Made by a program: the position numbers and the translations under genes. Below the pieces are notes generated by a model. That model was given only the letters and a program-made list of their open reading frames with translations, was not told the origin of the DNA and did no database searches. A stretch of DNA of 64,000 bases from an uncultured Planctomycetota bacterium (GTDB lineage Bacteria > Planctomycetota > PLA2 > JAEUHO01). This document shows, piece after piece, positions 21,886 to 56,128 of this stretch. The DNA lies in contig CAVVXN010000005.1 of NCBI GenBank assembly GCA_963752285.1, forward strand, positions 1,984,001 through 2,048,000. Direction: 5' to 3'. Positions within the stretch are counted from its first letter, which is position 1; each line of letters begins with the position of its first letter.

Positions 21886-21902
21886 CTCCCCTCAACCGCC
21901 GT

Positions 21903-22634: not shown

Positions 22635-22696
22635 TTTCACGATGCCCTCCCGTGTCCCAGTAGGCGACCTCCAGCAGAGGCACCCAGCGACCGGGT

Positions 22697-23078: not shown

Positions 23079-23390
23079 TTTCACGATGCCCTCCCGTGTC
23101 CCAGCAGGCGACCTCATGAAAGGCGCCCCAGCGACCGGGTTGGGGGGTAGGCTCGGGTGTGCGACAGCACACCCATGCCGTAGGGGGGCCGGGCCCGGCC
23201 TCTTTGCGAATCGTGCGTCGAGACGCGAGCACGTGGCGCGACAAGTGCACGCACCGAGGGACGGGAGCCTCGCGTTCGGACCGCAGGACGACGCCGGGAC
23301 GCCGGTCGTCGTACTCCGAACGGTTGCGGCGGGCGGCTGTTGTGCCGCTCCGACCTCTCGCTGACCGACTCCGCGTCCCACGCCCGGCGC

Positions 23391-33758: not shown

Positions 33759-35684
33759 CTACTCCCCTTCCTCGATCTTCTCCTCGAGGAACTCCCCGGC
33801 GACGGGCAGGAGGCTCCGGGAACTCAGCATCCCGAGCAGGTGGCCGTCCTTCACGACCGGGAGGCTGCCGAAGCCCTGCGTGCGGATCCGGGCGATCGCC
33901 TCGAGCGTCGAGGTCTCGGGCTCGACGGTCACGAGGTCGCGGCGCATCACGTCGCGCACCGCGAGCGGCACGCCCTCCTTCGGCGGGCGCACCTCGCCGG
34001 TCAGCGTCCGCAGCAGCGCGCGGTACGAGACGAGCCCCACGAGGCGGCCCTCGTCGTCCTCCACGGGCACGTGGCGGATCTTCTCCCAGAGCATCAGGCT
34101 CGCGACGAGGTCGAGCGCGTCCGTCTCGCGCACGGTCACGAAGTCGGTGGACATGAGCTGCTCGACCTTCAGGTAGTTGCTCTTCCAGCCCCCGCCCTCG
34201 ACCAGACGGGCCAGGCTCCACTCCGCGACCGGGCTCCCCTCCCACTGGCGCGCGACCAGGCCCGCGGTGAGCGCGTTCAGCCGTTCGCCCTCCGCGCCGT
34301 GCTCCCCCATGCCGGAGAGCGAACGGAGCATCCAGGACGCGCCCGTCGTCTGGCGAGCGAGTCGCTCCTCGATCACGCCGAGGTAGGTGTCGGCGTCGCC
34401 GTCGTCCACGCCGCCGAGGCGCAGGCCCTCCCGCGCCTGCGGGAGCAGGTGCTCCCGGAGCAGGGTCTGCGCCGGGAGCGCGCGGCCGTCGAGCCACATG
34501 ATCTCGGCGCCCAGACCGAGGCGCGCGGCGGAGATGAAGTTGCTCTTCGCGTCGTCGAAGGCGATGTGCTTGGTGATGTCGGGGTGCTCGTCTACCAGCG
34601 CCGACATGAGCCCGAGCCAGAACGCCGCGTTCGCGATCTCGTCGCGCGGCGTCGGGCCCGACGGCAGCACGCGGTTCTCGATCCGGAGATGCGGCTTCCC
34701 GTCGAGCACGCCGTAGCAGGCGCGGTTCCAGCGGTAGATCGTCCCGTTGTGGAGCCGGAGCGCCTTCAGGGCCGGGACGCCGCCGCGGTCGAGCACCTCG
34801 TTCGGATCCTCCTCGGGCTCGCTGGCGATCAAGATGCGGTGACGCGAGATGTCCTCGCGGTAGATCTCGGCGACCGACTCCCGGACCCAGCCGCGCCCGA
34901 AGTCCACGCGGGGGCTCTGCTGGCGGGTGGAGAGCCCGCTGCTTCGCATGTCCACCGACTGCTGGAAGAGGGCGATCCGCGTCTCGCGCCAGAGCCGCCG
35001 CCCGAAGAGGAGGGGCGAGTTCGTCCCGACGGCGAGCACCGGTGCGGCCGCGACCTGCGCGATGTTGTAGAAGCGCGGGAACTCCTGGGGCGCGACCTGG
35101 AAGTGGACCTGGAAGCTCGCGTTGCAGCTCTCCACCATCACCGAGTCGTGGCGGAGGAGCACCTCGTCCACACCCTTGATGTGGATCTCGTAGTCGCGAC
35201 CTCGAAGCCTCGTCATGGCCTCGTTGAGCGCGCGGTACCGAGGCATCGGCGTCATGCTCTCGAGGCTCAGGTCCGACTTGCGGATCGTGGGGAGGATCCC
35301 CGTGAGCGCGAGGTCCACGCCGAGGTCGCGCGCCGCGGCCCGCCCGCGGTCGAGGAGGCTCACGAGCTGCGCCTCGAGGTGCGAGAGGCAGTTCCCGCCC
35401 CAGAGCACGGGGTCGAGGTTCATCTCGAGGTTGAAGAGGCCGACCTCGGTCGTGAAGTGCGGGTCGTCCACCTTCTCGAGGACGCGGAGCGCCGCCATCG
35501 CGGGCCGCCAGTCCTCGTCGATCAGGAAGGCCTCCTGCTCGGCGCCGATGCGACGCACGCCGGTCTCGAAGCGGCCCTCGGCGATCATCCGCTCGAGCGC
35601 CTGGAGGTCGCGCAGCAGCCGGCGCGTGAACGCGCGGAGCTCGCTGCCCTCGTCCTCGAGATGAGAGACCTGGGATTCGCCCAT
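33759..35684 (-). CDS. Glutamate-cysteine ligase family 2 (carboxylate-amine ligase) with C-terminal CBS pair
   Basis: IGAEQE, FQVH, NSPLLFG, YRWNR and HLRIENR motifs; two CBS repeats (IRHVPV, GSLPVV). Confidence 0.9.
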   Translation of the reverse strand: MGESQVSHLEDEGSELRAFTRRLLRDLQALERMIAEGRFETGVRRIGAEQEAFLIDEDWRPAMAALRVLEKVDDPHFTTEVGLFNLEMNLDPVLWGGNCLSHLEAQLVSLLDRGRAAARDLGVDLALTGILPTIRKSDLSLESMTPMPRYRALNEAMTRLRGRDYEIHIKGVDEVLLRHDSVMVESCNASFQVHFQVAPQEFPRFYNIAQVAAAPVLAVGTNSPLLFGRRLWRETRIALFQQSVDMRSSGLSTRQQSPRVDFGRGWVRESVAEIYREDISRHRILIASEPEEDPNEVLDRGGVPALKALRLHNGTIYRWNRACYGVLDGKPHLRIENRVLPSGPTPRDEIANAAFWLGLMSALVDEHPDITKHIAFDDAKSNFISAARLGLGAEIMWLDGRALPAQTLLREHLLPQAREGLRLGGVDDGDADTYLGVIEERLARQTTGASWMLRSLSGMGEHGAEGERLNALTAGLVARQWEGSPVAEWSLARLVEGGGWKSNYLKVEQLMSTDFVTVRETDALDLVASLMLWEKIRHVPVEDDEGRLVGLVSYRALLRTLTGEVRPPKEGVPLAVRDVMRRDLVTVEPETSTLEAIARIRTQGFGSLPVVKDGHLLGMLSSRSLLPVAGEFLEEKIEEGE

Positions 35685-35735
35685 GTGCGCGGGGATCCTA
35701 GCAGGGGAGAACCGAGCTCGGGTAGCGCCAGGGTG

Positions 35736-36953
35736 TCAGCCGGCGAGGAGGTGAAGGTCCGTGCCGACCCGGTCGGCCAGGCGGATGGTGGTCTCGAGGT
35801 CGGGGTGGCGCACGATCAGCCAGCCGTCGGAGAGGAGGGTCTGCTTCCAGTTGCGCCGCGGCGCGCCGACGGGAAGGAGGTCCATGGCGACCAGCGCGTC
35901 GCCGAGGTCGTGCCGGAGGCGGTCCAGGCCCTCGATCCGGAGGATCCGCCCCTGGCCCCGGGCGCGCTTCACCACGATCGCCGCGTTGTACGGACGCGTG
36001 ACGGGACGCTCGAGGCGCCCCGTGAGGACCGCCTCGGCCCACGCCGCGTACACGTCGTAGTCGGCCGCGTAGTTCATGATGTCGGTGCTCCGCGCGCCGG
36101 CCGGTCGGGCCCCGATCTCGCCGAACACCGCCTCGCCCTCGGGCGTGAGGAACCACTCCATGTGCGTGAAGCCGTCCGGGAAGCCGAGCGCCTGGAGCAC
36201 CGCCCGTCCCATCTCGACGCCGCCGGCGAGGCGCGGAGCGTCGACGTCGCGGAGCGCGATGGTCTGCGCCGAGATCCACTCGTTCGTGCGCGCGACCAGC
36301 GGCCGCGGCCGGTACCAGGAGACGTTCGAGAAGCCGATCCGCCCCCCGGCCGAGATCGCGTCGAAGGTGTACTCCTCCCCTTCCACGAACTCCTCGACGC
36401 TCACCTCCTCGACGTGACCCATCCTCTCGAGGACGGTGTCGAGCGCCTCGGCGTCGCCGACTCGGTGCGTGTCGGCCGAGCCCGCGCCGGCGATCGGCTT
36501 GACGATGAGGGGGTAGCCGATCTCCTCGGCCGCCTCGCGAACCTCTCGGACGGTGGTCGCGCGCCGGTGGCGCGGCGTGCGTACGCCGGCGTCGTCCAGG
36601 ACGCGCTTCATGGCCTCCTTGTCCCGGAAGGGGAGCGCGCCCGCGAGGTCGAGACCGGGCACGCCGAGCGCCTCCCGGACACGCGCGGCGAGGAGCACCC
36701 CGGGCTCCCAGAGGCACTCGACCCGGTCCACGCCCCGCGCGGCGGGCCACCTGCCAACCTCCTCCACGACCGCGGCCTCGTCGAAGAGGCTTGGCACGGG
36801 GAGCCACGCGGCGAGCGCCTCGCGGGCGGCGGGCGCGAGGCCCGCGGGGGAGCCCTCCCCCACCCCGAGCACCGCGGCGCCCCGCCGGGCGAGCGCGCGC
36901 GTGAAGTAGCCGAGCTCGAACGGGTATCCGGGACTCAGGACGAGGACCTTCAC
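35736..36953 (-). CDS. ATP-grasp amino acid ligase-like protein
   Basis: RDKEAMK, GYPLIVKP..GAGS, VEEFVEG, THMEWF and GEIGARP motifs. Confidence 0.88.
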   Translation of the reverse strand: MKVLVLSPGYPFELGYFTRALARRGAAVLGVGEGSPAGLAPAAREALAAWLPVPSLFDEAAVVEEVGRWPAARGVDRVECLWEPGVLLAARVREALGVPGLDLAGALPFRDKEAMKRVLDDAGVRTPRHRRATTVREVREAAEEIGYPLIVKPIAGAGSADTHRVGDAEALDTVLERMGHVEEVSVEEFVEGEEYTFDAISAGGRIGFSNVSWYRPRPLVARTNEWISAQTIALRDVDAPRLAGGVEMGRAVLQALGFPDGFTHMEWFLTPEGEAVFGEIGARPAGARSTDIMNYAADYDVYAAWAEAVLTGRLERPVTRPYNAAIVVKRARGQGRILRIEGLDRLRHDLGDALVAMDLLPVGAPRRNWKQTLLSDGWLIVRHPDLETTIRLADRVGTDLHLLAG

Positions 36954-37000
36954 GGCCGCGCGCCTCCCACGCGGCGCAGATCATCCCAAACTCGATTGCG

Positions 37001-38221
37001 CTACGCGAGGTCCACCCTCACGAGGGAGACGAGGCGACGGAGAGCCTCCTCGACCACGGCCGTCTCCTCGTGGCGGACGATCACGTACCCCTCGCCCTCG
37101 TACGACCCGGTCGGGGTCTCGCCCCTCCCGGGGAGGCGGGCCTCCACCACGAGGGCGCCGAGCTCCCGCTCCGCCTCCTCGAGGCCCCGGATCGCCGCGA
37201 CCCGGCCCGCGCCCTGGCCGCGGAGGTACGCGGCGCCGGCGGCGTAGCGCCGCGCGGGCGCCTCGAACGTCTTGAACACGACCACGCGGGCCCAGGCGCG
37301 GTAGAAGTCGAAGTCGTTCGCGTAGGAGATGAGCGTCGAGAACTGGGCCCCCGGCGGACGGGCGGCGACCTCGCTCACGGCGACGCTCCCGTCGGGGCGG
37401 CGGAACCACTCCAGGTGCGTGACGCCCGTCTCCATGCCGAGGACGTCGAGCGCCGCGAAGGCGACCCGACGGATGTCGTCGTACCGAGGGTCGTCCACCT
37501 CGCGCGGGACCACGACGACCCACTGGATCCACGGGTTCTGGAGCACCACGAGCGGCGACGGGTGATACCGGCTGATCGAGTGCCACACGGGCCGGCCGTC
37601 GATCGACACCGTGTCGAAGGAGTGCTCCTCGCCCTCGACGAACTCCTCGAGGAGGACCTCGCGTCCCGGGGCGGCGGGGTGCGCCGCGAGGGCGCGGCGG
37701 AGCCCGTCCGCGTCATCGACCCGGAACGTGGCGCGCGCGCCCGCGCCCGCCGGCGGCTTCACGACGAGCGGGAAGCCCACCTCGGAGGCGACGCAAAGCG
37801 CCTCGTCGGCGGACGCGGCGAGCCCGTGTCGCGCGCAGGGGATCCCGGCGGCGCGAAGCGCGGACTTCATGAGCGCCTTGTCGCGAAAACGCGTCGCCGC
37901 CTCGACCCGGAGGCCCGGAAGGCCCAGCGACTCGCGGGTCCGCGCGAGCGGCACCTGGAGCTGCTCGAGCGTCCCCACCAGGCAGGTGACGGGCCCGACC
38001 CGGGCGGCGAGGCGCTCCGTCGCTCCGGCGATCGCCCCCGGGTCGAGCACGTCGTCGAGCCGTTCGTGCCCGTCGAGCCGGGCGCGGAGCGCGGCGGGGA
38101 TCCGCTCCAACGGATCCTGCGTCACGAGCGAGAGCCGGCATCCCTCGAGCGCCGCGACGGCGTCCACGAAGCGGCGGGTGGCGTCCATCAGGAACGGCGC
38201 GACGAAGACGACGTGGGTCAT
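37001..38221 (-). CDS. ATP-grasp amino acid ligase-like protein
   Basis: RDKALMK, GFPLVVKP..GAGA, LEEFVEG, THLEWF and SEVAARPPG motifs. Confidence 0.88.
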   Translation of the reverse strand: MTHVVFVAPFLMDATRRFVDAVAALEGCRLSLVTQDPLERIPAALRARLDGHERLDDVLDPGAIAGATERLAARVGPVTCLVGTLEQLQVPLARTRESLGLPGLRVEAATRFRDKALMKSALRAAGIPCARHGLAASADEALCVASEVGFPLVVKPPAGAGARATFRVDDADGLRRALAAHPAAPGREVLLEEFVEGEEHSFDTVSIDGRPVWHSISRYHPSPLVVLQNPWIQWVVVVPREVDDPRYDDIRRVAFAALDVLGMETGVTHLEWFRRPDGSVAVSEVAARPPGAQFSTLISYANDFDFYRAWARVVVFKTFEAPARRYAAGAAYLRGQGAGRVAAIRGLEEAERELGALVVEARLPGRGETPTGSYEGEGYVIVRHEETAVVEEALRRLVSLVRVDLA

Positions 38222-38327
38222 GGGTCCCCGCCCGTTGATGCCGAGGGCGCTCAAGAGTACCTTCCCGTCCGATTCGGCGCCGCAGAGAGCGGAGCCGGCC
38301 ACGCCGAGGGAGGGAAGCTGGCGCCGG

Positions 38328-39587
38328 ATGAAGGACGTCGTCACCGCGATCCTCGGCGGGGGGCAGGGCGCGCGCCTCTGGCCCCTGACCCGCCACCGGG
38401 CCAAGCCGGCGGTGCCCGTCGGCGGCAAGTTCCGCCTGATCGACGTCCCGATCTCGAACAGTCTCCACGCCGGCGCGAACCGGATCTACGTGCTGACGCA
38501 GTTCAACAGCGCGAGCCTCCACCGGCACATCGCCCAGTCGTACCGGTTCGACATGTTCTCGGGCGGGTTCGTGGACCTCCTGGCGGCGGAGCAGGGGCTC
38601 GGGGACCGGACCTGGTACCAGGGCACGGCGGACGCGATCCGCCAGAACCTGGGTCGTCTCACGAGCGAGACCACGCGCGACGTCCTCGTCCTGTCCGGGG
38701 ACCACCTCTACCTGATGGACCTCGCGGCGTTCGTCCGGCGTCACCGGGAGTGCGAGGCCGACATCACGATCGCCGTGTCGCCGGTCCCGCGCGCCGAGGC
38801 CCACGCCTTCGGGATCATGCAGCTCGACGCGCGCGGGCGGATCGTCGAGTTCGTGGAGAAGCCGAAGGAGGAGTCGGCGAAGGAGGCGCTCGTACCCGCC
38901 CCGGCGACGCGGGAGGCGCTCGGCGGGGCCGTCCCGCCCGACCACCTGTTGGCGAGCATGGGCATCTACCTGTTCCGGCGCGAGGTGCTCGAGCAGCTGC
39001 TCACGGGAACGGACGGCGCCGACTTCGGCCATCACGTCATCCCCGCCGCCATCGGGTGCCGCGCGGTCTACGCGTTCGCCCACCCCGGCTACTGGCGAGA
39101 CATCGGGACGATCTCCGCGTTCTACGAGGCGAGCCTCGACCTCACGCGCCCCCTGCCGCCCCTGAACCTCTACAGCGCCGAGCGGCCGATCTTCACGCAC
39201 TCGCGGTTCCTGCCGGGCACCAAGATCAACCGGTGCCAGGTCGAGCAGTCGATCCTCTGCGAGGGGAGCATCCTCACGGCGAGCCTGGTGCGGCGCTCGA
39301 TCGTCGGGATCCGGGCGATCGTGCGGGAGGACACCGAGATCGAGTCGAGCATCGTGATGGGAGCCCACGCGTACTCGGCCGAACAGCCGGGGACGCCGCC
39401 CCTGGGGATCGGCCGAGGCTGCACCATCCGGAAGGCGATCGTGGACCTCGGCGCGTACGTGGGCGACGGGTCCCGCCTCGTGAACACGCGGGGCGTGGAG
39501 GAGGAAGACGGCGAGAACCACTGCATCCGCGGTGGCGTCATCGTGGTCCCGCGCGGCGCACGCATCCCCGCCGGCACCGAGATCTGA
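38328..39587 (+). CDS. glgC: Glucose-1-phosphate adenylyltransferase
   Basis: GGGQGARLWPLT..RAKPAVP, WYQGTADA, LSGDH, EKP and YWRDIGT motifs. Confidence 0.96.
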   Translation: MKDVVTAILGGGQGARLWPLTRHRAKPAVPVGGKFRLIDVPISNSLHAGANRIYVLTQFNSASLHRHIAQSYRFDMFSGGFVDLLAAEQGLGDRTWYQGTADAIRQNLGRLTSETTRDVLVLSGDHLYLMDLAAFVRRHRECEADITIAVSPVPRAEAHAFGIMQLDARGRIVEFVEKPKEESAKEALVPAPATREALGGAVPPDHLLASMGIYLFRREVLEQLLTGTDGADFGHHVIPAAIGCRAVYAFAHPGYWRDIGTISAFYEASLDLTRPLPPLNLYSAERPIFTHSRFLPGTKINRCQVEQSILCEGSILTASLVRRSIVGIRAIVREDTEIESSIVMGAHAYSAEQPGTPPLGIGRGCTIRKAIVDLGAYVGDGSRLVNTRGVEEEDGENHCIRGGVIVVPRGARIPAGTEI

Positions 39588-39594
39588 CGTGCCG

Positions 39595-41079
39595 ATGGGC
39601 CGATCCTCCGTTCCGTTGCGCATCGGGATGGTCTCGGCCGAGATGGCGCCCCTCGCGAAGACGGGCGGCCTCGGCGACGTCGCCGCGGCCCTCGCCCGCT
39701 ACCTCCACGCCGACGGCCAGGACGTGCGGCCGTTCCTGCCGCTCTACGCGACGCTCCGCGTCGATGAGAAGGACCTGGTCCCGGTCTCGTTCCTCCAGGA
39801 CGTGCCCCTGCGGATGGGCGGTCACGCGCTCTCGTTCTCGGTCTACACGACCCCGCTCCCGGTCGGGGACGGGGGCGCCGACCGCGTGCCGGTCTACCTC
39901 GTCTCCTGCCCGCCGCTCTACGCCCGGCGCTCGTACTACCCGGAGGACGGCGACGAGCACCTCCGATTCGCGTTCCTCTCCCGCGCCGCGATCGAGTGCT
40001 GCCAGCGGATGGGGTGGGCGCCCGACGTCTTCCACGTGCACGACTGGCACGCGGCGCTCGTCCCGCTCTACCTCCGGACCGTCTACGCGTGGGACCGCCT
40101 CTTCGCGGCCACACGCACGGTCCTCACGATCCACAACCTCGCGTATCAGGGGGTGTTCGGGGCCCACGTGCTGGCGGACCTCGACCTGGGGATGCAGGCG
40201 GAGCTCTTCCACCAGGACCATCTCCGTGCGGGACGAATCGGCTTCCTCGAGACCGGGATCCTCTACGCGGACGTGATCACCACCGTGAGCGAGACGTACG
40301 CGCGCGAGGTCCAGACGCCCGAGATGGGGATGGGACTCGACGGCCTGCTCCGCGCGCGCGGCGCCGGCGTGGTCGGGATCCCGAACGGGATCGACACGCA
40401 GGAGTGGTCGCCCGAGACCGACCCGCTGATCCCCGTGCGCTACGGCGCCGACGACCTCGCCGGGAAGCGCAGGGACCGCGCGCTGCTGCTCGAGGAGATG
40501 AACCTCCTTGCGGATCCGCGTGGACCGGTGCTCGGGATCGTCTCGCGCCTCGTGTCGCAGAAGGGCTTCGAGCTGCTGTTCGACGTGCTCCCCGCGCTCC
40601 TCGCGAGCCAGGACGTCCGCGTGGCCGTGCTCGGCTCGGGCGAGTCGCGCTACGAGACGTACTTCGCGACCCTCGCCCGCGCGTTCCCCGGTCGTGCCGC
40701 GTGGCGCGGCGGGTACGACAACGCCCTCGCGCACCGGATCGAGGCCGGCGCGGACCTCTTCCTCATGCCGTCGCGCTTCGAGCCGTGCGGCCTGAACCAG
40801 ATGTACAGCCTCCGCTACGGCACCCCGCCCGTCGTGCGGAAGACGGGTGGGCTCGCGGACACCGTGGAGCACTTCGACCCGGCGACGGGACAGGGCACGG
40901 GCTTCGTCTTCGAGCACTTCACGTCGGCCGGCCTCACGTGGGCGCTCGGCCAGGCGCTCCAGGCGTGGCGCCAGCCGAAGGCGTGGCGACGCCTCGTCCG
41001 AAACGGCATGGCGAAGGACTTCTCCTGGGAGGCGCAGATCCGCCGCTACGTGGACCTCTACCGCCGTCTCTCGGGCTGA
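39595..41079 (+). CDS. glgA: Glycogen synthase
   Basis: KTGGLGDV, HDWH, TIHNLAYQG, SRLVSQKG and PSRFEPCGLNQ motifs. Confidence 0.96.
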   Translation: MGRSSVPLRIGMVSAEMAPLAKTGGLGDVAAALARYLHADGQDVRPFLPLYATLRVDEKDLVPVSFLQDVPLRMGGHALSFSVYTTPLPVGDGGADRVPVYLVSCPPLYARRSYYPEDGDEHLRFAFLSRAAIECCQRMGWAPDVFHVHDWHAALVPLYLRTVYAWDRLFAATRTVLTIHNLAYQGVFGAHVLADLDLGMQAELFHQDHLRAGRIGFLETGILYADVITTVSETYAREVQTPEMGMGLDGLLRARGAGVVGIPNGIDTQEWSPETDPLIPVRYGADDLAGKRRDRALLLEEMNLLADPRGPVLGIVSRLVSQKGFELLFDVLPALLASQDVRVAVLGSGESRYETYFATLARAFPGRAAWRGGYDNALAHRIEAGADLFLMPSRFEPCGLNQMYSLRYGTPPVVRKTGGLADTVEHFDPATGQGTGFVFEHFTSAGLTWALGQALQAWRQPKAWRRLVRNGMAKDFSWEAQIRRYVDLYRRLSG

Positions 41080-41089
41080 GCCGGGTCGC

Positions 41090-41400
41090 GGCGAGTCGCA
41101 CCCGTCTCGGCCCGCGCGCCACGGGGAGGAGCAGGGAGAGCGTGAACGTCCCGTCGAGGACGAGGATCGTTCCGGGCCCGCTCCCGTCGTCGGCGGCCTG
41201 GATCGCGTCCGTGAGCTCGGCGACCGTCGCCACGGTCGCCGTCGCCCCGGTCGGGGCCACGAGGGCCTCGCGGTCGCAGGACGGCAAAGGGTCGGTGGGG
41301 ACCGGCGGATCCGAGAGGTCCTGGGACGAGGCGCCCCCGCCCCCGCACGCGGCGTGGAGGACGGGGACCGCGGGAAGCACACGGCGACGGCGCGCGACGC
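41090..41400 (-). pseudogene. Possible remnant: N-terminus of a lipoprotein/beta-helix protein
   Basis: AAC-GGGG lipobox-like site, then TVATVAELTDAIQAA...GTILVLDGTFTL; protein-like character is lost as it runs into glgA. Confidence 0.35.
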
Positions 41401-41580
41401 GCCCCGGGACCACGCGTCCCGCCCCCCATGTCCATCGAGTGTCGCTCACGATCACGTTCCGGGCCGCCCCGGGTTCGCGGACCCATCAGAAGTCCCGGTC
41501 GGGGCCTCTCTCGACGGCGGAGGCCGTCGCGAGCGGTGCGCCGCCGGGTCGCGCGCGCACGCCCTCGATACCCTGAGGCC

Positions 41581-42882: not shown

Positions 42883-42889
42883 CGGCGGG

Positions 42890-44658: not shown

Positions 44659-44791
44659 GCGGAAGGGATACGGGCTCCGCGGTCTCCCGACCCGTGCCGG
44701 AAGTCATGGAAGCGCACCATGACCTCCGGCACGCGCGCGAGGACGGCTTCTCTAGCAGGATCGGTGCACGACGCCCAGACGGAGCCTCCCC

Positions 44792-45634: not shown

Positions 45635-45651
45635 CGGCCGAGGGGCGACCC

Positions 45652-47493: not shown

Positions 47494-47637
47494 CGGTCCT
47501 CCCCGGCGGCGGAGACCCTCCGCCCCCTTCGAACGCTACCCAGGACGCGAACCCCGCGCACGCCTCGAGGCTCGGGGCCCCGGTTGCGGTCGGCAGGCCC
47601 CGCTCCTCCCGGGACGCTGACCGGGGAGGCGACGACC

Positions 47638-48594
47638 TTGGACGTACCGCTCTGGGCATGGATCGCGTTCGGGCTCACCGTGCTCGTTCTCCTGGGGCTC
47701 GATCTGCTCGCCCACCGGGGCGAGAAGGAGGAGTCGTGGCCGCGCGCCGTCACGTGGAGCGGGATCTGGGTGGGCACGGGGCTCCTCTTCGGGGGGTTCG
47801 TCTGGGCCCTCTTGGGCGGCGCCGCGGCGGGCGACTACCTCGCGGCCTGGCTCATCGAGAACTCGCTGAGCATCGACAACCTCTTCGTGTTCCTGATCAT
47901 CTTCCGAAGCCTCGCCGTGCCCCGGAGGTACCAGGCGGACGTCCTCCTCTGGGGCATCTTCGGCGCGGTCGTCTTCCGCGCGGGCTTCATCGTCCTCGGC
48001 GCGGCGGCGCTCGACCGCTGGGCGTGGGTGTCGTACCTGCTCGGTGGGTTCCTCCTGATCGCGGCGTGGCGGGTCGCTCGCGAGGACCCCGAACCGAAGG
48101 AGGAGAACGCGACGGTGCGGTGGCTGTCCAAGCACCTGCCCGTCACGCACGAGATCCACGGCAAGCACTTCGTGGCCCGCGTCGGCGGCCGGCGCGTCCT
48201 CACGCCGCTCCTGGTCGCACTGATCGCCCTCGAGCTGTCGGACGTGCTGTTCGCCGTAGACTCCGTGCCCGCCGCCCTGTCGGTGACCCGCGTCCGGTTC
48301 CTCGTGTACACGTCGAACATCTTCGCGATCCTCGGGCTCCGCGCGATGTACATCGTGCTCGCACGAAGCATCGGCCGCCTGCGCTACCTCCACTACGGCC
48401 TCGCCCTCGTGCTCGCCTTCGCGGCGTTCAAGATGATCGCCGATAGGTGGGTCCACGTCTCGGGCCTCCAGTCGGTCGCCCTCATCGTCGCCATCATCGG
48501 CGCGGCGGCGTGGGCGAGCCTCCGCGCGGACCGGGCCGAGGCGCGGGGGGCGCGCGCCGCGCCCGTGGGCCCCGACGCGTCGGACCCGGAGTAG
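47638..48594 (+). CDS. TerC/Alx family metal homeostasis membrane protein
   Basis: TTG start after GGGGAGG; IENSLSIDNLFVF, DVLFAVDSVPA and TSNIFAILGLR motifs. Confidence 0.93.
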   Translation: MDVPLWAWIAFGLTVLVLLGLDLLAHRGEKEESWPRAVTWSGIWVGTGLLFGGFVWALLGGAAAGDYLAAWLIENSLSIDNLFVFLIIFRSLAVPRRYQADVLLWGIFGAVVFRAGFIVLGAAALDRWAWVSYLLGGFLLIAAWRVAREDPEPKEENATVRWLSKHLPVTHEIHGKHFVARVGGRRVLTPLLVALIALELSDVLFAVDSVPAALSVTRVRFLVYTSNIFAILGLRAMYIVLARSIGRLRYLHYGLALVLAFAAFKMIADRWVHVSGLQSVALIVAIIGAAAWASLRADRAEARGARAAPVGPDASDPE

Positions 48595-48603
48595 CCGAGT
48601 ACC

Positions 48604-50622
48604 TCAGCGGGAGCGGCGCCCCGATTTCAGGTAGCGGTCGAACCAGCGGACGATGTGGCGGAGGCGCTCGATCCGGCGGTCCGTGCGGCCCGTCCGGGAG
48701 AGGCCGTGCGGCTCGTCGGGGAAGCGGACCATCTCGGTGGGGACGCCGAGGCGCTTCAACGCGACGAAGATCTGCTCGCCCTGCTCGATGGCGCAACGCA
48801 GGTCCTGCTCGCTGTGGATCACGAGCGTCGGCGTCTTGGCGTTCCCGATCGACTTCATGGGCGACCGGTCCCAGTACGCCTCGACCGCCTCCCACGGGGC
48901 CTGGTCCCCGACCTCCGCCTGGAAGATCCAGTTGAAGTCGCTCGAACCCCACATGCTGAGCATGTTGCTCACGCTGCGCTGGGTCACCGCCGCGCCAAAC
49001 CGGTCCGTATGCCCGATGATCCAGTTCGTCATGTAGCCGCCATAGCTCCCGCCCGTCACGCCCAGGCGGTTCGCGTCCACGTACGGGAGCTTCGCGACGC
49101 GCTCGGCGAACGCCATGACGTCGTCGTAGTCCACGGTCCCCCACGCGCCCCAGGTCGCCTTCGCGTGCGCCTCGCCGTAGCCGCGTCCGCCTCGCGGGTT
49201 CGAGAACGCCACGACGTAGCCCTGGGCGGCGAGGAGCTGGAACTCGTGCATGAAGATCCGCCCGTACTGGACGAGCGGACCGCCGTGGATCTCGACGATG
49301 GCGGCGTGCTTCTTCTTCGTCCTCGCACCCGGCGGACGGAGGACCCATCCCTGGAGCCGGTGGCCCCCCCCGCCCTCGAACCACAGTTCCTCCGTGCGAC
49401 CGAGGTCCACTCGCCGCAGCCAGGAGTTCGTCCGGGTGAGGACGCGCGTGTCGCCGCTCTCGAGGTCCCTCGTGCGGATCTGGCCCGGGTCGTCCATCTC
49501 GCCGAAGACGTACGTGACCCGACGCTCCTCCGGGTCGAGATCGTAGGCGCCGACCACGCCCGGGTCCCCGACGACGGTCCGAAGGTCGCTCCCGTCCACG
49601 GCCACGGAGAGGAGCTCCGTGTTCCCCTCGCGCGTCACCTGGAAGAAGATACGCGAACCGTCCTTCGACCACCGCGGCGGCGGGAAATCGGGCTCGCCGA
49701 CGTCGTTGATCGTCCACGCGGAGACGTGGACGTCGTAGGCCGCCGTGAGGTTCTGGGCGGGCCCCCTCCCGTCGAAGGGGACGACCCACAGCGCGTCGTT
49801 CCGCCACCACTGGTTCTTCCCCTCGATCCCCACGTACGCGACCCGCTTCCCGTCCGGCGAGACGGCGGGCAGCGTCTTCGCACCGACCGGCGTCGGGATC
49901 CGCCGGGGCTTGCCGCCGCGCGCGGGGATCGCGAAGAGGTCGATCTCCTCCGGGTCCAGATCCGGCTCGTCCGTGCGGTTCGAGACGTACACGAGGTGCT
50001 TCCCGTCGGGCGTGAACGCCGGCGCGAGCTCGTCGTGCACGGGGTCGTCCGTCAACGCCTGCGCACGTCCCGTCCTCGTGTCCACGAGCCACAGGTGCCA
50101 GCGCTCCTTCGGCAAGTGGCCCGCGCCGTCGAGCTTGAAGAACGTGCGCGTGACGTGCCGCGCCACGACGCCGAGCCTCCTCGCGCGCTCGTCCTTGTCG
50201 CGCTGGAGCTCCTCGGCGTCCTTCCTCCGGAAGACGATCACGAGGTGTCGTCCGTCGGGAGACCACTCGAGCGCCTGGAACGCGCCCTTCAGGTCCGTCA
50301 GCGGCCGCGCCTCGCCCCCGCCGAACGGGAGGAGGTGGACCTGGGGCTGCTTCTCGTCCTGCCGGTTCGAGACAAACGCGATCGTGCCCCCGTCGGGCGA
50401 CCACCGCGGCATCGTGTCGACGTGGTCGCCGTAGGTGAACCGCGCGGGGCGCCCGCCTTTCGTCGGGACGACCCAGAGGTCCTGGTATTTCTTCTCGCTC
50501 TCCCGGTCCACGCGCTCCACGGCGTAGACGACGTGCCGACCGTCGGCAGAGAGCCGGCTCCCCGCGATCCGTTCCAGTCGGTACAGGTCCTCGGCCGAGA
50601 TCCGGCGCTTCTTCGTGGGCAT
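48604..50622 (-). CDS. S9 family peptidase (acylaminoacyl/dipeptidyl peptidase)
   Basis: PD40 repeats (WSPDG); IHGGP, GGSYGG, D in EQDLRC and H in EPH. Confidence 0.93.
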   Translation of the reverse strand: MPTKKRRISAEDLYRLERIAGSRLSADGRHVVYAVERVDRESEKKYQDLWVVPTKGGRPARFTYGDHVDTMPRWSPDGGTIAFVSNRQDEKQPQVHLLPFGGGEARPLTDLKGAFQALEWSPDGRHLVIVFRRKDAEELQRDKDERARRLGVVARHVTRTFFKLDGAGHLPKERWHLWLVDTRTGRAQALTDDPVHDELAPAFTPDGKHLVYVSNRTDEPDLDPEEIDLFAIPARGGKPRRIPTPVGAKTLPAVSPDGKRVAYVGIEGKNQWWRNDALWVVPFDGRGPAQNLTAAYDVHVSAWTINDVGEPDFPPPRWSKDGSRIFFQVTREGNTELLSVAVDGSDLRTVVGDPGVVGAYDLDPEERRVTYVFGEMDDPGQIRTRDLESGDTRVLTRTNSWLRRVDLGRTEELWFEGGGGHRLQGWVLRPPGARTKKKHAAIVEIHGGPLVQYGRIFMHEFQLLAAQGYVVAFSNPRGGRGYGEAHAKATWGAWGTVDYDDVMAFAERVAKLPYVDANRLGVTGGSYGGYMTNWIIGHTDRFGAAVTQRSVSNMLSMWGSSDFNWIFQAEVGDQAPWEAVEAYWDRSPMKSIGNAKTPTLVIHSEQDLRCAIEQGEQIFVALKRLGVPTEMVRFPDEPHGLSRTGRTDRRIERLRHIVRWFDRYLKSGRRSR

Positions 50623-50673
50623 CGACGCTCCTCGCACGGGGAGCGCGGAGCGTAGCGCGACGCGCCCCCGGCG

Positions 50674-51435
50674 TCACCCGTGCGGCGCGAGGGTCTCGAG
50701 CTCGGCGAGGTACTTCGGGAGCATCGCCCGCCACGTCGTCCAGTCGTGGCGCCACTCGACGCCCCAGGGATCGACTCGGTTGGGGATCCCTCGGCTCCCG
50801 AGGACGTGGGCCATCCGCCACGACTCGGACGGGTCCTCCCACTCGCCTTCGCCGGTCGCCAGGATCAGGAACCGCTCGCGGAGCCGCGAGAGTTGGGCGG
50901 ACGCTCCCAGGTTGGGGAGGAAGTGCATCGGCGAGGAGAAGTAGAGGTCTTGCCCGTGGTCGGCCGGGTCCAGCCACTTCGACGGGTCGTACGTGCCGCT
51001 CATGCCGATCGCGAGGCAGAACAAGTCCGGGTGGCGGCAGAGCGTGGCGACCGCGTTGAACGCCCCGATCGACGCGCCCGCCACGACGATCGAGATGTCG
51101 GGCGTGCGACAGTCCTCACGGATCCACGGGACCAGCTCTCCCGCCACGAACCGGTCGAACGCATTCTGGACGTGCGGGTACCAGCCCGGCGGCCGTTCGC
51201 GCCGGCGTACGAGCGCCTGGCCGGCGAGGCTGTCGCACGAGTAGACCTTGACCCGCCCCGCGTCGATCAGCGGCGCGAGGGCCTGGATCATCAGGAACCG
51301 CTCGCACTCCTCGGCGTCGCCGCCCGCGGTCGGGAAGAGGAGAACCGGCACCCCGAACGTGCCCCACCGGCAGCAGCCGACCTCGCTTGAGAGATGCTGG
51401 GAGGCGATCTGGATCGAAAGCTTCGTGTCGCTCAC
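50674..51435 (-). CDS. Alpha/beta hydrolase (putative esterase)
   Basis: FPTAGGD, GASIG nucleophile elbow and HDW; GTGA coupling to the upstream gene. Confidence 0.85.
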   Translation of the reverse strand: MSDTKLSIQIASQHLSSEVGCCRWGTFGVPVLLFPTAGGDAEECERFLMIQALAPLIDAGRVKVYSCDSLAGQALVRRRERPPGWYPHVQNAFDRFVAGELVPWIREDCRTPDISIVVAGASIGAFNAVATLCRHPDLFCLAIGMSGTYDPSKWLDPADHGQDLYFSSPMHFLPNLGASAQLSRLRERFLILATGEGEWEDPSESWRMAHVLGSRGIPNRVDPWGVEWRHDWTTWRAMLPKYLAELETLAPHG

Positions 51436-52673
51436 GAGGGGCGGCCCTCCTCTTCGCGCCAGCGCTGGATGAGCGCCCAGAAGCGGTCCGTGAACTCGTC
51501 GATCTCGTGGCGGGGAAACAAGGCGGCGACCTTCTGGTGCACGGCGTCCTTCGCGAACGCCGCCCCGAACGCCTCCCACGCGACCTCGTCCAGGTGGGCG
51601 AGGTGCCGTGCGCAGAAGGACTCGAACGCGTCCACGTCGAGCCGGGCGCGGGCGATCGCCGCGTACGCGGCGAGCTTCTCGCGCGCGGGGCGGTCCTCCC
51701 GGGCGACCTCGAAGTACGGCTCCCAGTCGGTGGCCTTCTGCATGCGACGGCGCGTCGCGGCCGCGAAGACCGCCCACCGGACCTTCGCCTTCACGAGCCA
51801 CGGAAAGTGGTAGTGGAGGGACGTCACCTGCGAGTCGGGACACGCGTTCGCGAAGTCGATCGGGTAGAAGACGCCGTCCTGTCGGAGGGCCTCGCAGGAG
51901 TTGAAGTCCCAGCCGAAGAAGGTGTTGATCGTGAGCGTCATGTCCTCGAGAAGGGATCGCTCGTCGGGCGTCACGAAGTCCTTGTCGAGCGTGTACCGCT
52001 CGTGGAGCGGCGCGGCGGGGTCGTAGCGCATCACCCGCGTCTGCGGGCCTACCGCGAGGCAGCGCACGAACAGGTCGTGGGGCTCGACCGCGCGCTGGAG
52101 GTGCATCACGCGCTTCCCGCTCTGCTCGTAGGCGGCGCGCAGTCCGGCCTCGTCGTCGATGCGACTCACGCCGACCCAGGCGCCGCCGTCGTACGGCTTC
52201 ATGTAGAGCGGGTATCCGACCTTCTGTCCGATCTCGCCCAGGTCGAAGAGACGCGCGTAGCGGCGCAGCGTCACCTCGAGGTCGTCGCGGGGCTCGTAGT
52301 CCTTCGGCGGGAGCATCCAGGTCGCCGGGACCGGCAGGCCGAGGCGCATCATGGCCACGTACGACGTGTGCTTCTCCATGGACTGGATCGCCCACGGGTT
52401 GTTGAGCACGTACGTGTCGTTCATGAGAACGATCTTCTTGATCCACTCGCGGCTCGTGTGATACCAGTGCGTCAGTCGGTCGAGCACGACGGCGTACCGA
52501 CAGGGCTGGCGCAGGTCGAACGGCTCGATCGTGACGCGTTCGACCTCGAACCGAATGCGCTCGCCGCCCACCGGGATCTCGAGGTCGAGCCGCCGGACGA
52601 TCTCCTCGAAGAGGAGCGGCCAGCAGATGTCGGCCCCGAGCGACAGACCGATCCGCCGCGTGATCGTGCCCAC
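51432..52673 (-). CDS. ATP-grasp (RimK/glutathione synthetase-like) protein
   Basis: NNP...EK, GYPLYMKPYDGGAW, LQRAV, NSCE and IDFANACPD motifs. Confidence 0.8.
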   Translation of the reverse strand: MGTITRRIGLSLGADICWPLLFEEIVRRLDLEIPVGGERIRFEVERVTIEPFDLRQPCRYAVVLDRLTHWYHTSREWIKKIVLMNDTYVLNNPWAIQSMEKHTSYVAMMRLGLPVPATWMLPPKDYEPRDDLEVTLRRYARLFDLGEIGQKVGYPLYMKPYDGGAWVGVSRIDDEAGLRAAYEQSGKRVMHLQRAVEPHDLFVRCLAVGPQTRVMRYDPAAPLHERYTLDKDFVTPDERSLLEDMTLTINTFFGWDFNSCEALRQDGVFYPIDFANACPDSQVTSLHYHFPWLVKAKVRWAVFAAATRRRMQKATDWEPYFEVAREDRPAREKLAAYAAIARARLDVDAFESFCARHLAHLDEVAWEAFGAAFAKDAVHQKVAALFPRHEIDEFTDRFWALIQRWREEEGRPS

Positions 52674-52699
52674 GAGTCCCTCCGCGCCGTCCCGAGCGC

Positions 52700-53839
52700 T
52701 CAATCGTAGACGAGGCCCAGTGGCCCGGGGAAGAGCCAGCTCAGGCTCTCGCGCAGGCGGTCGCGCCAGTTCTCCCAGTTGTGACCGTCCCGCGCCTCGA
52801 CGTACCGGACGTCCATGGCGGTCTGCTGCAGGAGGGAGACCAGGGAGCGGTTCTCGTAGATCAGCGCCTCGTACGTGCCGCACGTGACGAAGATGCGTTC
52901 GGAGAAGCGCCCGGGTGCGGCGCGGAACCCGTTCACGAACCGCACGATCGGGTCGAAGGCCGGCGGCCGGGCGCTCCGCCCGATGTCGGTGAAGGCGAAC
53001 GACCCCGACTGGAGCAGGAGCCGCCCCACGACGCCCGGATGTCGCCACGCGGCGTACAGGGCGGCCACCGCGCCGAGGCTTGCGCCCATGAGCCCGAGGG
53101 AGGCGCGGCCGGGACGGACGGGGTAGCGCGAGGAGAGGAGCGGAACGAGCTCCTCCACGACGTGGCGGGCGTGGTCGGGGTTCGCCGCGTACTCCACCAT
53201 CCGGTCGGCCGGACGGCAGAGCGCCACGACCATCGGCGCGACCTCGTTGCGGTAGATCAGGTTGTCGAGGACGATCCGGAGCCCCGCGTACTCGACGTAC
53301 TCGGGCCCGTCGAACACCACGAGCAGCGGGTAACGCCGCGACCTCCGCAGCCGGCGCGGGAGGTAGACGTGGACCTCGCGCTGCCCGTTCAGGGAGGGGG
53401 CGGGCACCATGATCTTCTCGACGCGCCCGCCTTCGACCGACGGGTCCGGTCGGATCCACGACGGCGTCTCGTAGCCGCTCCCCTGGCAGACCGAGTTCGC
53501 GCCGAAGGGGTCGCGCGCGAGGAGCGGGTTCAGAGGATCCCGGATCCACGTCGTCTCGGCGCCCCGGACGACCTCGAGCTTGTACTCGATCCGCGACCCG
53601 GGCGGAACGTCCACGACGAGGTACCAGAGCGTCGTGCTCGCCACCCGGAGGAAGGGCTGCGAGGTCGGGAGGCCGTACACGAAGTGACGGAGGCGGACGT
53701 CGTCGGCGTCGCCACGGTAGAGGAACGTGATCGACGGCCCTTCCACGATCGGCACCGCGCGGTCCGCGAGGAAGCGGTCTACCGCCGCCTCGTCGAGGGG
53801 GCCCTCGCCCTCCAGGAAGTCGAGGATCGCGACGGTCAT
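52700..53839 (-). CDS. Esterase with N-terminal Ig/CBM48-like domain (Fes-like architecture)
   Basis: ITFLYRG...LWY....IEYKL...WIRDPLNP; YLP, GASLG and GHNW. Confidence 0.85.
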   Translation of the reverse strand: MTVAILDFLEGEGPLDEAAVDRFLADRAVPIVEGPSITFLYRGDADDVRLRHFVYGLPTSQPFLRVASTTLWYLVVDVPPGSRIEYKLEVVRGAETTWIRDPLNPLLARDPFGANSVCQGSGYETPSWIRPDPSVEGGRVEKIMVPAPSLNGQREVHVYLPRRLRRSRRYPLLVVFDGPEYVEYAGLRIVLDNLIYRNEVAPMVVALCRPADRMVEYAANPDHARHVVEELVPLLSSRYPVRPGRASLGLMGASLGAVAALYAAWRHPGVVGRLLLQSGSFAFTDIGRSARPPAFDPIVRFVNGFRAAPGRFSERIFVTCGTYEALIYENRSLVSLLQQTAMDVRYVEARDGHNWENWRDRLRESLSWLFPGPLGLVYD

Positions 53840-54804
53840 CGCCCGCGCGCGTCCTCGAGCGTCTCCTCCAAGGCGTCCTCGAGCGTGCCGTCGAGGCCGA
53901 GGCGCCAGGCGCCGCCCGCCGCGCTCGTGATGCGCTCGCCGTCGATCCGCACGCCGCACCCGGGGTCGAGGACGATCCCCCGCTCGGGAAGGAGGCGGCG
54001 CGCGAGCGTCTCGACGCGTGTCCGGTCCTCGATCGCGAGTCGCGCGCTCGCGTCCGGGAGCAGCACGACGCCCGAGACGAGCGCGAGGCCCCGGCCCATC
54101 ACCTCGGCGTGGCCCTCGCCCTGCGGGGGGCGGTCGTGGAAGAGGAGGATCCGCTCGGCGAGGGCCATCGCGCCGCCGGACCACGCGAAGCAAGGGCGCG
54201 TCGCCAGCGCGTCGGCGAGCCCGAAGAGGCGGAGCCGGTTCCTGAGGATCGGCACGTGTCCGCCCGCGACGAGCACCGCGGCCGCGCCGTCGATCACGCG
54301 TCGCATCTGCTCCGCCGGCACCCGGATCGCGTCGCGCTCGCCCGGCCGCCACCGATCGGCGAACTCGGTCTCGATCGCCTCCGCCCGCTCGAGGTGCCCT
54401 CGGTCGAGCGCACGCACCATCTCGAGGGCGTCGGAGAGCTCCCCCGCGAGCACACGGGACGGCCCCCCCGCGACCCGGAGCTCCGCCCGCGCCACGAGGA
54501 GGTGCCCGAGCCGGGTCCGGTACGCGGCCTGGGACGCGCGGAGGAGCGCACGCCGGGCCCGATACGCCTCGAGCAGCTCCCGGTCCCGGGCGAAGGCGAT
54601 CTCCGCGGCGTGGTGCAGGCGGAGGTTCTCGACGGGGCGTCCCACGGCGCGGTCCAGGCGCTCGGTCTCGCCCTCGCGATCCTCCCAGCCGGCCGTGATC
54701 GCCGCCAGGGGCCCCGCGACGCCGGCGGCGGCGAGCGCCGCGGGGAGCGTCGGGTCCGAACGCTGTGGGCCGAGCAGGACGACCGTGGGGGGTACCGCAT
54801 GCAC
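53836..54804 (-). CDS. Peptidase S51/class I glutamine amidotransferase-like hydrolase
   Basis: ITAGW, LVAGGH and AWSGGAM (Ser nucleophile elbow); GLALV..VVLLP-D, with Asp where S51 enzymes have His. Confidence 0.7.
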   Translation of the reverse strand: MHAVPPTVVLLGPQRSDPTLPAALAAAGVAGPLAAITAGWEDREGETERLDRAVGRPVENLRLHHAAEIAFARDRELLEAYRARRALLRASQAAYRTRLGHLLVARAELRVAGGPSRVLAGELSDALEMVRALDRGHLERAEAIETEFADRWRPGERDAIRVPAEQMRRVIDGAAAVLVAGGHVPILRNRLRLFGLADALATRPCFAWSGGAMALAERILLFHDRPPQGEGHAEVMGRGLALVSGVVLLPDASARLAIEDRTRVETLARRLLPERGIVLDPGCGVRIDGERITSAAGGAWRLGLDGTLEDALEETLEDARGR

Positions 54805-54907
54805 GGGCGAGATGGTAGATCACGCTTCCCCCGCGGGAAGGGACGCTCTCGGCGGCCCGGCTCGTGGCCTCGGCCAGGCGCCTCGCGGGGTGGACGGGAG
54901 GCCCGCC

Positions 54908-56128
54908 GTGCACGTCGTCTTCGTGGAGCCGCGCTTTCCCTCGAACCAGCGCGAGTTCGTGCGCGGGCTCGCGTCCGTGGGCGCGCGCGTGACCGGGATC
55001 GGCGAGGCGCCGGTCGAGCACCTGGACCCGGAGCTCAAGGGCTGGCTCTCGGACTACGTGCGCGTGGGGTCGGTCTGCCACGAGGACGAGATGCTCGAGG
55101 CCGTGCGCCGGATCCAGGCGGCGGGCTGGGTGGACCGCCTCGAGGCTACGGTCGAGGCGCACATCCTTCCCGTGGCGCGCGTGCGCGAGGCCACGAAGAT
55201 CCCGGGAACGTCCGTTCGCACGGCGTATCTCTGTCGCGACAAGCCCGCGATGAAGGAAGCGCTCCGCGAGGCCGGGGTCGCCACCGCGCGGTCCACCGGC
55301 GCCGCCTCCTCGGACGACGTGCGCCGCTTCGCGAAGGAGGTCGGCTACCCGCTCATCTTGAAGCCGCCGAGCGCCGCGGGGGCCGCGGGGACGATCCGCG
55401 TGGACGACGAAGGAGCGCTCACGCGCGCGCTCGCCGAGACCGGCGTGGACCGCGGCCAAACGGTCGCGGTCGAGGAGTTCGTCGAGGGCCACGAGGCGTT
55501 CTACGACACGCTCGCAATCGACGGCCACGTAGGGCACGACTTCATCTCGCACTACTACCCCGGCGTGCTCGAGGCGATGCGCACGCGATGGATCTCTCCG
55601 CAGATCGTGGTGACGAACCGCATGGACGCACCGGCGTACCAGGAGGTCCGCGCGCTCGGGCTTCGCGTGATCGAGGCGCTCGGCATCGGCACCTCGGCGA
55701 CCCACATGGAGTGGTTCTTCGGACCGAAGGGCCTCAAGTTCTCCGAGATCGGGTGCCGCCCGCCGGGCGTCGGGCAGTGGGACCTCTACTGCGCGGCGAA
55801 CGAGATGGACCTGTATCGCGAGTGGGCCATGGCGGTCGTCCACGGCCGGACCGACGCCCGGCCCACCCGTCGCTACGCGGCGGGCATGATCGCGCTCCGA
55901 CCCGACCGGGACGGGCGGATCGTGGGCTACGACGGCGCGGAGCGGGTGTTCGAGCAGATCCGCGACCACGTGATCCACGCCCACCTGCCGGCCCCCGGCA
56001 CCCCCACGCAGCCGGTGGAGGCGGGATACAAGGCGAACGCCTGGATCCAGGTGCGCCACCCCGACTACGACGAGGTCCGCCGGATCCTCGACTTCGTGGG
56101 CGAGAACCTGAAGGTCCGCGCCGCGTAG
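54908..56128 (+). CDS. ATP-grasp amino acid ligase-like protein
   Basis: RDKPAMK, GYPLILKP, VEEFVEG, THMEWF and SEIGCRPPG motifs. Confidence 0.88.
   Translation: MHVVFVEPRFPSNQREFVRGLASVGARVTGIGEAPVEHLDPELKGWLSDYVRVGSVCHEDEMLEAVRRIQAAGWVDRLEATVEAHILPVARVREATKIPGTSVRTAYLCRDKPAMKEALREAGVATARSTGAASSDDVRRFAKEVGYPLILKPPSAAGAAGTIRVDDEGALTRALAETGVDRGQTVAVEEFVEGHEAFYDTLAIDGHVGHDFISHYYPGVLEAMRTRWISPQIVVTNRMDAPAYQEVRALGLRVIEALGIGTSATHMEWFFGPKGLKFSEIGCRPPGVGQWDLYCAANEMDLYREWAMAVVHGRTDARPTRRYAAGMIALRPDRDGRIVGYDGAERVFEQIRDHVIHAHLPAPGTPTQPVEAGYKANAWIQVRHPDYDEVRRILDFVGENLKVRAA

Follow-up and report, generated by a model that had tools for sequence, protein, structure and literature searches.

A 64,000-nucleotide stretch of a planctomycete genome (G000:C5:1984001-2048000; genome G000 is 89% complete), which we call the window, carries glycogen synthesis genes among four ATP-grasp proteins, a carboxylate-amine ligase and several hydrolases. 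A preliminary description of this DNA had read these genes as an uncharacterised system that makes and degrades an amino-acid-decorated glucan or a peptide storage polymer. All the genes that it named are present as intact open reading frames (ORFs) with a strong third-position GC signal. Most of them belong to a module that is real, widespread and uncharacterised, and that has two parts: part X, in the order S51-like protein, Ig-esterase, RimK-fold protein and small esterase, and part Y, made of the ligases AG1, AG2 and AG4 with glgA and often glgC. The genes lie as follows.

33759-35684, minus strand: GCS2-CBS (641 aa), a carboxylate-amine ligase with two C-terminal CBS domains; accessory (Pfam GCS2 E 1e-6, CBS E 3e-25).
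35736-36953, minus strand: AG1 (405 aa), L-amino-acid-ligase-type ATP-grasp; part Y (family profiles and paralogy).
37001-38221, minus strand: AG2 (406 aa), L-amino-acid-ligase-type ATP-grasp; part Y (family profiles and paralogy).
38328-39587, plus strand: glgC (419 aa), ADP-glucose pyrophosphorylase (NF002772 E 8e-154, slightly below the cut-off).
39595-41079, plus strand: glgA (494 aa), GT5 glycogen synthase of a module-specific clade (TIGR02095 528 bits against a cut-off of 328).
41080-50673: insert with an NDH-2-like oxidoreductase, a LuxR-type two-component pair, a TPR protein, a 613-aa protein, TerC and an S9 peptidase (Pfam).
48604-50622, minus strand: the S9 peptidase, inside the insert.
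50674-51435, minus strand: small esterase (253 aa), a small alpha/beta serine hydrolase; part X (PF00756).
51432-52673, minus strand: RimK-fold ATP-grasp of an unnamed family (413 aa); part X (structure model).
52700-53839, minus strand: Ig-esterase (379 aa), Fes-like with an N-terminal Ig-like beta-sandwich domain; part X (PF00756 and model).
53836-54804, minus strand: S51-like protein with a long, probably helical insertion (322 aa); part X (peptidase E profile match).
54908-56128, plus strand: AG4 (406 aa), L-amino-acid-ligase-type ATP-grasp; part Y (profile match to the L-amino acid ligase 4WD3).

Packing is tight, with 4-nt overlaps between the S51-like and Ig-esterase genes and between the RimK-fold and small esterase genes. 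Promoter and terminator scans gave nothing above chance.

A search of the GTDB genome set with the RimK-fold protein returned at least 576 related places, the best 80 of which (62-73% identity) were kept; these loci were picked by the RimK-fold gene alone, and many end early at contig ends. By record title they belong to Acidobacteriota, Planctomycetota, Gemmatimonadota, Actinomycetota, Gammaproteobacteria, Eisenbacteria, Myxococcota and Limnocylindria. Among the 80 loci the part X partners recur most often (Ig-esterase in 70, S51-like protein in 60, small esterase in 52), followed by those of part Y (AG4 and glgA in 38 each, AG1 in 34, AG2 in 33, glgC in 19). The glgC count includes four weak matches (24-25% identity; L010 and similar), which a limit of 30% identity removed from the adjacency analysis. 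Gene order is conserved as well: the Ig-esterase gene directly precedes the RimK-fold gene in 62 loci, the S51-like gene precedes the Ig-esterase gene in 59, the small esterase gene follows the RimK-fold gene in 49, AG2 precedes AG1 in 28, and glgA precedes AG4 in 11. Three Thermoanaerobaculia loci (L002, L009 and L027, ~11300-14400) have an M1 peptidase gene in the slot after the RimK-fold gene that the small esterase usually occupies. For the RimK-fold enzyme, 6946 relatives were found among 8000 scored candidates. A plasmid search with this protein gave no match; among sequencing runs, no RNA run was listed and the DNA runs had small shares only.

The window splits the module into block A (33759-41079) and block B (50674-56128), which the preliminary description had taken for one system. 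The neighbourhoods bear this out: in many genomes the blocks are linked with one another as well as with alpha-glucan genes. The closest homologues, in identical gene order, are in three Planctomycetota records (L018, L021 and L023), where the blocks are joined with nothing between the small esterase gene and glgA. Because other phyla show this gene order too and these three records have A and B joined, the cluster is more than a chance arrangement: the two blocks are one conserved cluster, here split by a 9.5-kb unrelated insert. The genes between 41.1 and 50.6 kb are not conserved neighbours: at E<=1e-10, NDH-2, TerC and S9 occur in 0/80 loci and the two-component pair in 1/80, and S9 otherwise gives weak matches (24-28% identity) in 2/80. 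They are therefore an insert, and we rejected S9, TerC, NDH-2 and the two-component pair as module members; the S9 peptidase lies where it had been described and does not belong to the system. The 613-aa protein of the insert (window 45652-47493, minus strand) has a probable signal peptide, an HExxH motif, no Pfam hit and a weak match to flagellinolysin. A few matches were longer than usual (4 RimK-fold and 9 AG4, one of them GlgA-AG4). Domain mapping of all of them, with six sequences examined in full, found truncated domains or out-of-frame stretches, and we took these apparent gene fusions as frameshift artefacts. The record BFE74377.1 of the cultured species Actinoplanes digitatis, in which AG4 adjoins the Ig-esterase, is frameshifted too. 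The family alignments used below contain only stop-free matches with a query coverage of 80% or more.

The module-glucan link is stronger than the preliminary description could know, because by its sequence the GlgA of the module belongs to a dedicated clade. In a FastTree of 65 GlgAs (midpoint-rooted, with no formal clade test; matches over ~380-400 residues without stops), the 38 sequences with an aromatic-x-Trp-Asp signature form an exclusive clade with a support of 0.909, which reappears in a 56-sequence tree with a support of 0.72. The signature is W166-D167 in the window GlgA and is found in 0/27 of the other GlgAs in the tree, which leaves out G035, G036, G037, G039, G033 and most same-family GlgAs. 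The clade spans at least six phyla (by record title), and 37 of its 38 members lie beside module genes, the exception coming from a genome that is 66% complete, where it sits on a short contig (G049). In G066 a clade GlgA stands beside AG4 and an ordinary GlgA elsewhere; G043 also has a module-type and a second, ordinary GlgA, the former being partial and judged by 59% identity and position. There are exceptions: in G060 and in four Gemmatimonadota loci the GlgA next to the module is of another kind. The catalytic residues are intact (the TGG of the KTGG motif, R318, K323 and E396 are invariant). The predicted complex of GlgA with AG4 scored 0.00, which speaks neither for nor against an interaction.

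Within the host's family we compared 29 genomes including G000, 14 with and 15 without an AG4-type match. The S51-like gene and strong Ig-esterase matches are each present in 14 of the former and none of the latter (one distant 31% Ig-esterase match in G027 was set aside), and the RimK-fold gene (11 vs 0), glgA (12 vs 0) and glgC (13 vs 0) are likewise confined to the former; where a carrier lacks one of these genes, its assembly is fragmented. The module is absent from G001, a congener of G000. GH57 (13 vs 1) and phosphorylase (13 vs 3) are distributed alike. They belong to a debranching enzyme-GT4-GH57-GT3/GT35 operon that adjoins the module in G023, G034 and G043 and is otherwise mostly unlinked to it (in G007, for example, C4:677-682 kb vs 874-904 kb). 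As these genes mostly lie at a separate locus, the pattern goes beyond that of a single block moving as a unit.

The window does lack glgB, glgX and glgP, as the preliminary description had stated, and this means little because genome-wide searches placed glgB, glgX and phosphorylase elsewhere in the genome. Contig C1 holds a cluster of glgX, glgE, treS-maltokinase (treS-mak), glgB and malQ (G000:C1:511700-526500, L119), and C5 holds a debranching enzyme and a 1407-aa fusion of a GT3 glycogen synthase with a GT35 phosphorylase (G000:C5:1539380-1545698, L160). The GT4 and GH57 genes that relatives have between fusion and debranching enzyme were not found in G000. Within the family, glgE and glgB occur only in G000 and its congener G001: in 13/13 other module genomes, and also in G034 and G043, neither a GH13 glgB nor a GH57 branching enzyme was found, and G072, G073 and G076 likewise have the module with neither enzyme found. 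Candidates for glucan branching in such genomes are the GT4 and the 400-aa GH57. We rejected a general rule by which decoration replaces branching, as glgB is present in 7/10 other-lineage genomes with clade GlgA and in G000, G057 and G060.

These data bear on one alternative, in which a borrowed GlgC and clade GlgA make not a storage polymer but a small glyco-peptide metabolite with a peptide linked to a short malto-oligosaccharide. GlgC and GlgA homologues serve acarbose-type pathways, the fact that this GlgA forms a clade of its own hints at an altered acceptor, and neither branching enzyme was found in 15 module genomes of the host's phylum. We nevertheless hold it to be very unlikely, since the window glgC and glgA are the only close copies in the host genome, genomes with the module tend to have debranching enzyme, GH57 and phosphorylase as well, and no exporter recurs in the loci.

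Weak (~30% identity) RimK-fold matches in relatives correspond to a shorter, 310-aa form that marks a sister module. A small-esterase homologue is nearby in 7 of the 8 sister loci examined; by Pfam, three have a YbdK-type GCS2 and three an M29 peptidase. Five encode a 400-aa protein with no Pfam hit (L122:11096-12313, L124:9798-11048 and L129:5849-7051 among them), and its motif looks like that of what we take to be a circularly permuted ATP-grasp. glgC is adjacent in three sister loci, and glgB lies within ~8 kb in G029, G030, G031, G033 and G036. The constant pair is thus the RimK-fold protein and the small esterase, around which one functional set of ligases, peptidase, esterase and glucan genes has been rebuilt with members of different families. 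Lone AG2-type ligases (48-49% identity) occur outside the module in G029:C42 and G033:C11 (L134, L135), both genomes with the sister type only.

Of the four ATP-grasp proteins claimed in the preliminary description, AG1, AG2 and AG4 are confirmed by family profiles; the RimK-like one gives weak profile matches, and its fold comes from a model. AG1, AG2 and AG4 are paralogues (36-40% identity), each forming one clade (support 0.999, 1.0 and 0.79, respectively), and all keep the Lys/Lys/Glu/Glu/Arg active-site residues, which in AG1 are invariant (34/34). The best profile match of AG4 is the L-amino acid ligase 4WD3 (E 7e-23), followed by BacD; all NCBIfam scores of L-amino-acid-ligase type for the window ligases are far below cut-off. 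The RimK-fold protein reaches 16.6 bits with TIGR00768 (cut-off 143.4). Its model (pLDDT, the predicted local distance difference test score, 93.7) gives VIA-align Z scores of 20.2 for RimK, 19.4 for synapsin, 19.3 for ArgX and 19.0 for ITPK1, near-tied matches over ~260 residues at 10-16% identity, and the fold scores of this model do not separate a ligase from a kinase. K101, K159, R204, E261, D273 and N276 are invariant in 81/81 homologues, the last two within an Asp-Phe-Ala-Asn metal motif (D273-F-A-N276), and an extra helical part of ~100 residues follows at the C-terminus. The protein atlas places it in an unnamed 8601-member cluster, commonest in Actinomycetota, and the database names of its relatives are almost all 'hypothetical protein'.

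Two alternatives grow out of these near-ties. The RimK-fold enzyme could be an ITPK1-like hydroxyl kinase that phosphorylates glucan or a sugar, with the amide ligases acting separately: ITPK1 scores within ~1 of the top match, and the invariant Asp of the metal motif stands where RimK-type ligases have Glu. Yet the motif spacing is unlike that of the ITPK motif as we know it, no phosphatase recurs in the loci and the constant partner is a serine hydrolase, all of which makes such a kinase highly unlikely. Among the best fold matches are also RimK and ArgX/LysX, enzymes whose substrates are proteins, and the ligases could accordingly add amino acids to a protein (possibly GlgA, GlgC or phosphorylase) from which the hydrolases would remove them, thereby regulating glycogen metabolism; the clade-specific W166-D167 motif of GlgA could serve as a docking site. 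Such reversible tagging seems quite unlikely to us, as synapsin and ITPK1 score nearly as well at such low identity, no conserved small target gene appears among the recurring neighbour ORFs (of at least 100 aa), and three further ligases and two esterases would be superfluous.

GCS2-CBS passes PF04107 (28.6 bits, cut-off 21), has the Glu-x-Glu residues E49 and E51 in 10/10 homologues and has no solved relative by sequence. It occupies two positions in the module, after AG1 or after the small esterase, where an AstE-like gene follows in 4 loci. We rejected it as a core member because 14/15 of the module-free relatives have it, against 12/14 of the carriers (26/29 in all), and because it is present in only 10/80 loci. 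The coupling to energy charge, which the preliminary description had built on this gene, is therefore optional at best.

The Ig-esterase and the small esterase both pass the PF00756 cut-off. In the Ig-esterase the triad S254, E324 and H353 is kept in 65/65, 63/65 and 64/65 homologues, and its model (pLDDT 93.4) has an all-beta, Ig-like N-domain at residues 31-119, in which W72, Y86, K87, D101 and N115 are invariant. The model aligns with Fes at a Z of 33.7 over 346 residues (root mean square deviation, rmsd, 3.0; template modelling score, TM, 0.68-0.74; sequence E 3e-22, ~20% identity) and with CBM48-CE1 enzymes at a Z of 27.4-27.6 (rmsd 5.2-5.5, TM 0.58), the N-domain aligning with the N-domains of both. 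In the small esterase the triad S122, E200 and H230 is kept in 48/48, and the best solved match, a weak one (E 6e-4), is antigen 85A, which we take to be a transacylase. The S51-like protein has no Pfam hit; its best profile match is to peptidase E DR_1070, again weak (E 0.013), and the protein atlas assigns PF03575 to 21-43% of members. The nucleophile Ser209 is kept in 57/58 homologues, which together with the weak peptidase E match fits the class I glutamine-amidotransferase-like fold of S51. Asp251 replaces the catalytic His of peptidase E, which is found in 45/58; the other 13 have Asp (8), Ser (3), Arg (1) or Asn (1). The pair His223-Asp224 is kept in 55/58, and His223 might substitute for the missing His; the copy of the host genome may be weak or non-catalytic.

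What the data show directly is which genes make up the set, that they are linked across phyla, that the GlgAs form a clade, and which folds and conserved catalytic residues the proteins have. As to the chemistry, we propose, with a probability of roughly 40%, a reversible aminoacyl or peptidyl decoration of the alpha-1,4-glucan made by GlgA. GlgC would supply ADP-glucose and the clade GlgA would extend alpha-1,4 chains, a step made fairly safe by family membership and intact motifs. Following the chemistry of their family, AG1, AG2 and AG4 would link amino acids through carboxylates activated as acyl phosphates, with probably one step per paralogue. More speculatively, the RimK-fold enzyme and the small serine hydrolase would load a sugar hydroxyl with the resulting group, with the hydrolase in the role of a serine transacylase. 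The Fes-like esterase would then cleave the ester bond, and the peptide would be degraded by the S51-like protein, whose place is taken by M29 or AstE-type enzymes in other forms of the module. Where it has been recruited, GCS2-CBS could add a gamma-glutamyl-type amide step under adenylate control. Fes cleaves amino-acid esters, and the presence of two serine hydrolases with full triads points to an ester-linked product. We favour glucan decoration because it alone explains the dedicated synthase clade, the ester-type hydrolases, and the amide ligases and peptidases together.

Several observations weigh against glucan decoration. The nucleophiles of L-amino-acid ligases are amines, and unmodified glucan has neither an amine nor a carboxyl; the loading step therefore needs unproven acyl-transfer chemistry. 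Sharing an operon with glycogen genes can reflect shared regulation only, and the family genomes are not independent, module presence following genus closely. On its model, the Ig-esterase is closer to Fes than to CBM48-CE1 enzymes, and W98, the candidate sugar-binding residue of its N-domain, is kept in 37/65 homologues only. The 'CBM48-like' label that the preliminary description gave this esterase is poorly supported: the best match of the whole chain is Fes, the CBM48 profile PF02922 gives no match at E<=0.01, and CBM48 domains attached to CE1 esterases did not bind starch (PMC8040265), so that the N-domain of the Ig-esterase is no evidence for glucan binding.

The distribution of parts X and Y cuts both ways. 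Among 43 full-length loci, 25 have AG1/2/4 and a glucan gene, 4 AG genes only, 1 a glucan gene only and 13 neither; a glucan gene is thus present in 25/29 loci with AG1/2/4 vs 1/14 without. Ten whole genomes were searched because their RimK-fold locus lacked glgA. In three of them (G065, G066, G069) a module-type GlgA stands beside AG genes away from the RimK-fold gene. The others count as further points against glucan decoration: G061, G062, G064 and G068 (4/10) have part X with no AG4-type gene and ordinary GlgA only, and in G063, G067 and G070 (3/10) the AG trio is present and no GlgA of the module type was found. X and Y thus occur together as a rule but not always, and it is mainly Y that ties the module to glucan.

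The occurrence of part X without clade GlgA also fits a rival in which the product is a free peptide or amino-acid polymer, a cyanophycin-like nitrogen reserve or osmolyte recycled by the hydrolases, and operons are shared with the glycogen genes only because the same storage conditions call for both products. AG1, AG2 and AG4 are nearest to L-amino-acid ligases, and amide ligases and peptidases are found in both module types with the families swapped (S51 for M29, GCS2-CBS for YbdK-type). This polymer, the main rival and in our view only a little less likely than glucan decoration, leaves unexplained why a cross-phylum GlgA clade exists beside ordinary GlgA and why two ester-type hydrolases are conserved; moreover, the window ligases include no CphA, scoring 32-42 bits against cut-offs of 850-877.

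If glucan decoration is right, bacteria of at least six phyla would make covalently aminoacylated or peptidylated glycogen by means of a dedicated synthase and ATP-grasp/transacylase chemistry not described before, either storing nitrogen on the carbon reserve or keeping a poorly branched glucan soluble, a claim of this breadth being rather doubtful for now. The usual view of bacterial glycogen is that of a polymer of glucose alone, and the module implies either that this polymer is covalently modified or that bacteria common in soil and sediment keep a second, so far unrecognised reserve beside it. Four ATP-grasp families that are still uncharacterised would gain functions as well. As its parts are soluble enzymes of known folds, the question is directly testable.

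Outside the module, the window has at 21378-23415 dense, similar-sized ORFs on both strands with regular spacing in the ORF list, which suggests a tandem repeat region. Downstream of AG4 lie a 1273-aa carboxypeptidase-regulatory-like repeat protein (56229-60050, plus strand) and a TPR-adenylate/guanylate cyclase (60061-62127, plus strand).

The preliminary description knew of no assigned function, and our search of open papers agrees, having found no description of the module; a 2009 amidoligase survey may already list the neighbourhood. That survey, by Iyer et al., reportedly covers neighbourhoods in which ATP-grasp proteins, carboxylate-amine ligases, peptidases and hydrolases occur together, and the sister module may be among them. 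Each domain belongs to a known fold, and for the combination no characterised counterpart was found. Cyanophycin metabolism (CphA, which joins ATP-grasp and Mur-ligase domains, and the cyanophycinase CphB of S51) shares ATP-grasp ligation, an S51-family hydrolase and possibly a storage role. Its synthetase profiles TIGR02068 and NF010623 (cut-offs 850 and 877) are far from reached by AG1, AG2 and AG4 (~405 aa), the window ligases being the proteins searched. The module differs from it by four stand-alone ATP-grasps, two esterases, the GlgA clade, and an S51-like protein that is nearer to peptidase E and is without the usual His. The L-amino-acid ligases (4WD3, BacD 3VMM, BL00235 3VOT) are the best solved relatives of AG4, with their active-site residues kept in all three paralogues; in the module, however, three long-separated paralogues stand in a glycogen context and not in an antibiotic-type cluster. 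With Fes and the CBM48-CE1 feruloyl esterases the Ig-esterase shares the N-terminal Ig-like domain and a Ser-His-Glu hydrolase, while no siderophore or xylan genes are among the recurring neighbours. The RimK/LysX-ArgX/synapsin/ITPK1 branch shares the fold of the RimK-fold protein, which is set apart by its Asp-Phe-Ala-Asn motif and helical C-terminal part. Classical GlgC-GlgA synthesis, finally, shares the ADP-glucose pyrophosphorylase and a GT5 synthase with its catalytic residues, whereas in the module the GlgA clade is tied to ligase genes and glgB is unlinked or not found.

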